From contig NW_027140453.1 of NCBI RefSeq assembly GCF_036365525.1, positions 992,001 to 1,056,000 of the forward strand: 64,000 nucleotides of DNA, read 5' to 3'. This document shows, piece after piece, positions 2,336 through 2,654 of the stretch. The notes beneath the pieces were generated by a model. It did no database searches and was not told the origin of the DNA. It saw nothing but the letters and a program-made list of their open reading frames with translations. Both the position numbers and the translations under genes were made by a program. How positions within the stretch are numbered: the stretch's first letter is position 1; each line of letters begins with the position of its first letter. Origin of the DNA: Heterodontus francisci. Its lineage: Eukaryota.

Positions 2336-2372
2336 GGGGAGAGGTTTTATTGAACTGCTTTGTAACATCGTG

Positions 2373-2386
2373 GGAGGTCAGTATAG
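2373..2386 (+). pseudogene. D segment of inverted second D-J-C cassette (GGAGGTCAGTATAG)
   Basis: 5' RSS TTTTATTGA(2345-53)-12bp-CATCGTG(2366-72). 3' RSS TACCGTG(2387-93)-23bp-GCAGGAACT(2417-25). The 12/23 layout is that of TCR D-beta. The 3' heptamer has CAC>TAC, so it is probably inactive. Confidence 0.7.
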
Positions 2387-2654
2387 TACCGTGTTACATT
2401 CCTGTGCTCACCCCGTGCAGGAACTCCACCGTCTGCTTGCCCTTCTCACAGTCTACCCGACTGCCTGCCCCAGTGCCCAGGATCTCCCCACCCCTGCAGC
2501 ATGCGCCTGCACTGTCAGGACAGGCAGGAGCAGACTGAATCCTGAGTTGACCATCTCATGGGGCACATGCCCCCTGAAGAGACAGCAAACTGCCCAGGCA
2601 AGGCGAGAGGCTTGCTGGGGGAGGGGGGTTTCAATGGTGGGTTCACTCTCTGTG

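Follow-up and report, generated by a model that had tools for sequence, protein, structure and literature searches.

A second, inverted V-D-J-C unit in the TCR-beta region of the horn shark is a pseudogene, with intact constant-region models in catsharks and whale shark

The window, the whole stretch of 64,000 nucleotides analysed here (Heterodontus francisci, assembly GCF_036365525.1, contig NW_027140453.1, positions 992,001 to 1,056,000), contains two sets of antigen-receptor elements in opposite orientation. The canonical TCR-beta set lies on the minus strand and comprises a constant (C) exon at 22091-22440, 100% identical to a Heterodontus francisci TCR-beta record, a D-J(n)-D-J(n) block at 25790-48546 with 18 J motifs and two D segments (39285-39297 and 48534-48546), and three V genes with 23-spacer recombination signal sequences (23-RSS) at 58362-63073 (heptamers at 58400, 61213 and 62773). 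The two canonical D-J blocks serve a single C, with none between the blocks. The canonical J near 30144 has neither a CAC heptamer nor a GT donor and is likely a pseudo-J, and a weak 23-RSS-like site at 54970-55008, also on the minus strand, has no V reading frame upstream. On the plus strand, tail-to-tail with the canonical C, is a second unit with its own D, J, C and downstream exons.

The D segment of this second unit (GGAGGTCAGTATAG, 14 nt, 2373-2386), with two open frames and one containing a stop, is preceded by a 12-RSS at 2345-2372 (nonamer 2345-2353, J-type spacer 2354-2365, heptamer CATCGTG 2366-2372) and followed by a 23-RSS at 2387-2425, the heptamer of which is damaged in the window copy. 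Of 24 genomic copies, 23 share this D sequence exactly, and the GGGACA core present in both canonical D segments is missing from all 24. A near-perfect inverted repeat flanks the segment (2361-2398), both RSS spacers starting with TTACA beside the heptamer. Scored with a matrix of the canonical 12-RSSs of the window, from which the canonical J with an identical spacer was left out, the 5' RSS reached 19.3 bits, a value that lies between the extremes for the 20 canonical 12-RSSs (-14.2 to 26.2 bits, leave-one-out) and was matched or exceeded by only four of the 1,876 CAC sites in the window, itself among them. The D and 12-RSS at 2345-2386, proposed by a sequence-only reading of this DNA, are real and unrelated to the canonical GGGACA-type D segments. 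Spacers of 13 or 14 nt were considered for the same RSS and rejected, giving 5/9 or 7/9 nonamer matches where the 12-nt spacer already gave a normal score. The mammalian D-beta1 RSS ends in TGTAA-CATTGTG and that of the second-unit D in TGTAA-CATCGTG, a likeness also pointed out in that reading. It says little and is not specific to D, because the 12-nt spacer recurs unchanged in a canonical J RSS (27573) and 4 of the 18 canonical J spacers in the window start with the same TTACA.

On the 3' side, the heptamer is TACCGTG in the window copy and in three others and CACCGTG in 20 of the 24 copies, and the corresponding 23-RSS scores were 6.2 bits for the window copy and 17.7 bits for a CAC copy. 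The CAC-type signal stayed below all 26 genuine 23-RSSs (21.7-38.5 bits), and none of 1,888 background sites reached 17.7 bits. Since RAG requires the CAC of the heptamer and the window copy has TAC, that copy has likely lost D-J joining.

The first J (J1, 2655-2703), with FGGR replacing FGxG and a GT donor, is the segment ending in TRLAVL that had been predicted; it is present as described, but its 12-RSS (2627-2654) is weak (4.9 bits, with 81 of 1,876 background sites as high). No alignment of J1 with the catshark model introduced below was obtained. Of 23 copies examined, 13 have a second J of the FGNG type (J2) farther downstream, which the window copy lacks. An extra exon at 6033-6081, which is 49 nt long (47 nt in four copies) and missing from the catshark gene models, was seen spliced into one contig of likely RNA, where it stands between J2 and C, and it disrupts the reading frame in each of the 24 copies; one part resembles either a decayed J, in which CGEG replaces FGxG, or the exonised end of a repeat. 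The second-type constant Ig exon at 6167-6503 is a pseudogene with frameshifts near 6235, 6302 and 6381 and a stop at 6395-6397. Its domain is of the C1-set and nearest to TCR-beta, and the best 60 PDB matches of a fragment were all TCR-beta chains. Downstream are a hinge exon with a cysteine (8911-8928), a transmembrane (TM) exon with a single TCR-beta-type lysine (9092-9201) and a cytoplasmic exon with the length and FD-stop ending found in shark TCR-beta (11453-11485).

A search of the horn-shark genome returned 24 second-unit D-J matches on seven contigs, along with second-type C exons (24) and canonical C exons (21). These are not haploid copy numbers, since some contigs could be haplotype duplicates of others, three of the D-J stretches being 100% identical. 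Eight of the second-unit cassettes are on the window's own contig. A second-type C lies tail-to-tail with 18 of the 21 canonical C exons at a distance of 15.9-20.3 kb, the other three being near contig ends. The whole TCR-beta unit is multiplied, its 21 canonical C exons being 98-100% identical and arranged in alternating head-to-head and tail-to-tail blocks on contigs C407, C761, C779, C876, C1317, C1675 and C2233 of genome G000 (six C on C407). Several horn-shark TCR-beta loci were reportedly described in papers from the 1990s. One V in a canonical array (L018, G000:C407:1068170-1068445) stands apart from the families next to it, having a short CDR2 region and an extra cysteine pair; its 23-RSS is good.

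A single +1 frameshift, near 6381 in the window, is common to all 24 second-type C exons, most of which carry further lesions, and the longest open reading among the 24 is 91 residues. A protein search of the horn-shark genome returned no further second-type C copies. The second unit is dead in every horn-shark copy found, and an intact copy of the C exon could be missing from the assembly. Because the lesion is common to all 24 copies, inactivation of C would have preceded amplification of the tail-to-tail block. An identical internal deletion was found in 6 of 23 TM exons (L040, L044, L048, L050, L051 and L052) and the hinge splice acceptor is damaged in many copies, which represents decay continuing after amplification.

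The second unit is still transcribed and spliced in the horn shark, as seen in contigs that are likely RNA. Those of run X5 contain splices joining J2, the extra exon and C (joint 6080-6166, GT..AG), C, hinge and TM, and C directly to TM, and a contig of run X6 joins C to the cytoplasmic exon, this evidence coming from one sample; the runs X5-X7 are not on record as RNA and their status was guessed, with the GT..AG joints fitting RNA. Over the D-J stretch (2403-2698), the X5 contigs are in germline configuration. Neither X6 nor X7 had contigs matching this stretch, D was uncovered in X5-X7, and no V-D or D-J joint was found in these three sets or in one DNA set, contigs of this kind being unable to show absence.

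Intact second-type C models were found in other sharks by HMMER and word searches, namely in the catsharks Scyliorhinus torazame (P0024, P0025) and S. canicula (P0151) and in the whale shark Rhincodon typus (P0023). A word-based search with the open 71-residue fragment of the horn-shark C returned none; the orthologs were recovered by HMMER. Read through its lesions, with X at the breaks, the horn-shark second C is 67% and 65% identical to the catshark models and 54% to that of the whale shark, but only 34% to the horn shark's own C-beta and 28-35% to shark C-beta. The catshark models retain C, the hinge cysteine, the single TM lysine, the FD-stop tail and an FGxG J, and the whale-shark model retains C and TM. 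S. torazame P0025 begins with a V of the family found nearest to the horn-shark cassette (49% identity). In S. canicula, the records of the second-type and the canonical TCR-beta models both have 225,974,235 bases, and the two are likely on one chromosome. Word- or cluster-limited searches in Heptranchias, Pristiophorus, Carcharodon, Mustelus and Chiloscyllium found canonical C-beta and no second-type ortholog. The second-type orthologs are automatic gene models, a rearranged transcript or protein having been seen in no species, and for the D with its two RSSs and for the inversion of the unit the observations come from the horn-shark genome alone.

We consider, with good confidence, that the D at 2373-2386 belongs to a second, inverted V(n)-D-J-C unit that is a pseudogene in the horn shark and likely encoded an old TCR-beta-type chain, still intact in catsharks and whale shark. 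The reading builds on what was observed directly, that is the layout, the RSS types (23 for V, 12/23 for D and 12 for J), a V set of its own, the lesions, the splicing and the intact C models of the orthologs. That a second chain works in catsharks is a proposition we favour slightly. Alternatively, the second unit could be ancient yet defunct or of marginal importance throughout the sharks, its open C in catsharks and whale shark serving only unrearranged transcripts or a surrogate-type chain instead of a diversified receptor. The germline configuration of the X5 D-J contigs fits such a view, as does a bamboo-shark repertoire annotation (PMC10322711, supplementary file 16) that was primed on known C-beta and has no second type of C in the portion available. 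We regard it as rather improbable, given that two catsharks keep the C, hinge cysteine, TM lysine and tail, with an FGxG J in the models, and that the whale shark keeps C and TM.

The sequence-only reading had suggested that the canonical minus-strand V genes could feed two constant regions, one of them through inversion onto the second-unit D, and had offered as an alternative that the cassette has V genes of its own left of the window. The alternative is borne out by the 60 kb to the left, with nine V-like segments on the plus strand, six of them open and with a 23-RSS, the nearest having a perfect 23-RSS and lying 6.9 kb upstream of D. The same V subfamily is found 6.9-10.1 kb upstream in 24 of 24 cassette copies. 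Of 18 upstream stretches that were read, 17 reached this subfamily, each with a consensus RSS (17/17), and all 18 proximal V cores read are open in the horn shark. The dN/dS among copies was 0.41 for V and 0.75 for C, with no significant difference (Fisher p 0.30). Given these upstream plus-strand V genes, inversion is unnecessary. Joining of the canonical V genes to a second working constant region by inversion would draw on a D whose 12-RSS scores like genuine ones, on the opposite orientation of V and D, which the 12/23 rule allows to be joined by inversion over about 56 kb, and on the transcription and splicing of the second unit. The geometry of the proposal therefore stands, but no second chain could result in the horn shark, because C is frameshifted in all 24 copies and the D of the window lacks the CAC; with V genes of its own at 6.9 kb and a D 12-RSS that is more like the J-type than the D-type signals of the horn-shark locus, the proposal becomes very improbable. 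More plausible would be an inversion in the reverse sense, with the intact V genes of the cassette joining the canonical D.

The age of the second unit was addressed with a tree of 25 rows, from which three long-branch outgroups and five further rows had been dropped and in which IgL and birds had fewer rows; an earlier tree with the three outgroups did not separate the C lineages. The four second-type C sequences formed a clade (95/95) outside the clade of shark canonical C-beta (100/99), which takes in Heptranchias and Pristiophorus. Since the latter clade excludes the second type, the duplication is likely to predate the split of the Heptranchias and Pristiophorus lineages, as judged from these sequences. 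In the best tree, all other C-beta together were the sister group of the second-type clade (89/88, unstarred), and AU tests rejected none of its groupings with shark C-beta (0.11), with bony-vertebrate C-beta (0.14) or with lepidosaurs (0.17, three C sequences), in trees comprising no teleost, ray, chimaera or labelled TRE sequences. A working chain in catsharks combined with an origin of the second beta isotype before bony fish is possible, and we hold this only tentatively. As the source of the cassette, a recent duplication of D-J-C-beta within the horn shark, with later decay and no meaning beyond the species, would suit a locus so rich in recent duplications, but is extremely improbable in view of the much higher identity to the catshark models than to the horn shark's own C-beta, a rejected sister relationship with the latter (p-AU 1.7e-9) and a D unrelated to the canonical one.

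Under the preferred reading of an old inverted unit, rearrangement would originally have proceeded by ordinary deletion, D to J and then the unit's own V to D, and the product would be a chain with a hinge cysteine and one TM lysine, presumably pairing with TCR-alpha. In the horn shark, the C exon would have been frameshifted and the whole tail-to-tail block then amplified. The open V genes of the cassettes would thereafter be usable only through a canonical D, either by inversion or by a long deletion that reaches another unit. The second-unit D of this species is a fossil.

We found no description of the second unit in searches of an open-access library, including the portion available of PMC5931798. 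Cartilaginous fish are described as having four TCR chains in translocon loci, with NAR-TCR as a form of delta (PMC6795676, in part), and TCR-epsilon (TRE) has been called the first new TCR to arise from TRB duplication (PMC11754216, in part). A second beta-type chain of such age in sharks, if true, would be an earlier case than TCR-epsilon and would escape repertoire studies whose primers target C-beta. The whole inverted unit would also offer an origin, open to testing, for the solitary inverted V that follows the constant gene in amniotes. The broadest version, in which a fifth rearranging TCR chain, a beta isotype that predates the living orders of sharks, is at work in catsharks and an inverted V-D-J-C unit was ancestral to the lone TRBV30 and possibly to squamate TCR-epsilon, is in our view unlikely.

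Compared with known systems, the second unit is closest in plan to canonical TRB of jawed vertebrates, with which it has in common the V23 / 12-D-23 / 12-J arrangement, a C1-set domain, the hinge cysteine, the single TM lysine, V families and the locus. It differs in its diverged C, a D without GGGACA, only one or two J segments, an inverted position behind C-beta and its pseudogene state in the horn shark; it works like TRB, yet is not canonical TRB. TCR-gamma was rejected as an identity: gamma genes have no D and a locus of their own, whereas the second unit includes a D and is situated within the TRB region. The C1 exon on contig C5, assumed to be gamma, scores lower than most C-beta.

Squamate TRE is similar in being an additional chain derived from TRB, with a small number of D and J segments, a 12/23 D and a single TM lysine, in having V genes related to the 3'-inverted TRBV clade, and in its many non-productive transcripts, but it is described as squamate-specific and on another chromosome (PMC11754216, in part), whereas the second unit lies inside the shark TRB region. 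The genes flanking TRE are SLC43A3, RTN4RL2 and SLC43A1, in contrast to the TRB segments that surround the second unit. Salmonid TRB likewise has paired V-D-J-C loci in opposite orientation; these are head-to-head, with the V genes placed centrally and some of the J segments identical, and the part of the source available presents no deeply diverged tail-to-tail C (PMC10464911). In bamboo-shark TRB, V arrays that are marked as transcribed point at the tail of both C-beta genes, and gaps of 34 kb and 47 kb at the expected place of the second unit are without an annotated D-J-C in the portion available (PMC10322711, file 16). The use of these V genes fits inversion and long deletion into the other unit equally well.

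The cassette-proximal V family had as its best single-domain PDB matches the MEL5 and 5xov TCR-beta chains, with 65-66 bits for the nearest V and 79-80 bits for another family member. In humans, TRBV30 is the V in 3'-inverted position. The MEL5 beta chain is a TRBV30 chain (PMC5887915, in part). For a canonical-side V ending in CAWSL, the same kind of search did not return TRBV30 chains at E 1e-12. The family is not exclusive to the second unit, because 45 of its best 150 members are nearer to a co-oriented canonical D. Inverted V genes of amniotes have been described (PMC10464911 and PMC11754216, both in part), and the 3'-inverted TRBV form a clade with TREV as its sister, the inversion being modelled as a V-only event (PMC11754216, in part). 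Like the shark genes, the amniote 3'-inverted TRBV lies behind C and points back at it; it stands alone and joins by inversion, whereas the shark V heads a full D-J-C unit. The comparison suggests that, in amniotes, the lone inverted V may be left over from an inverted unit that was once complete.
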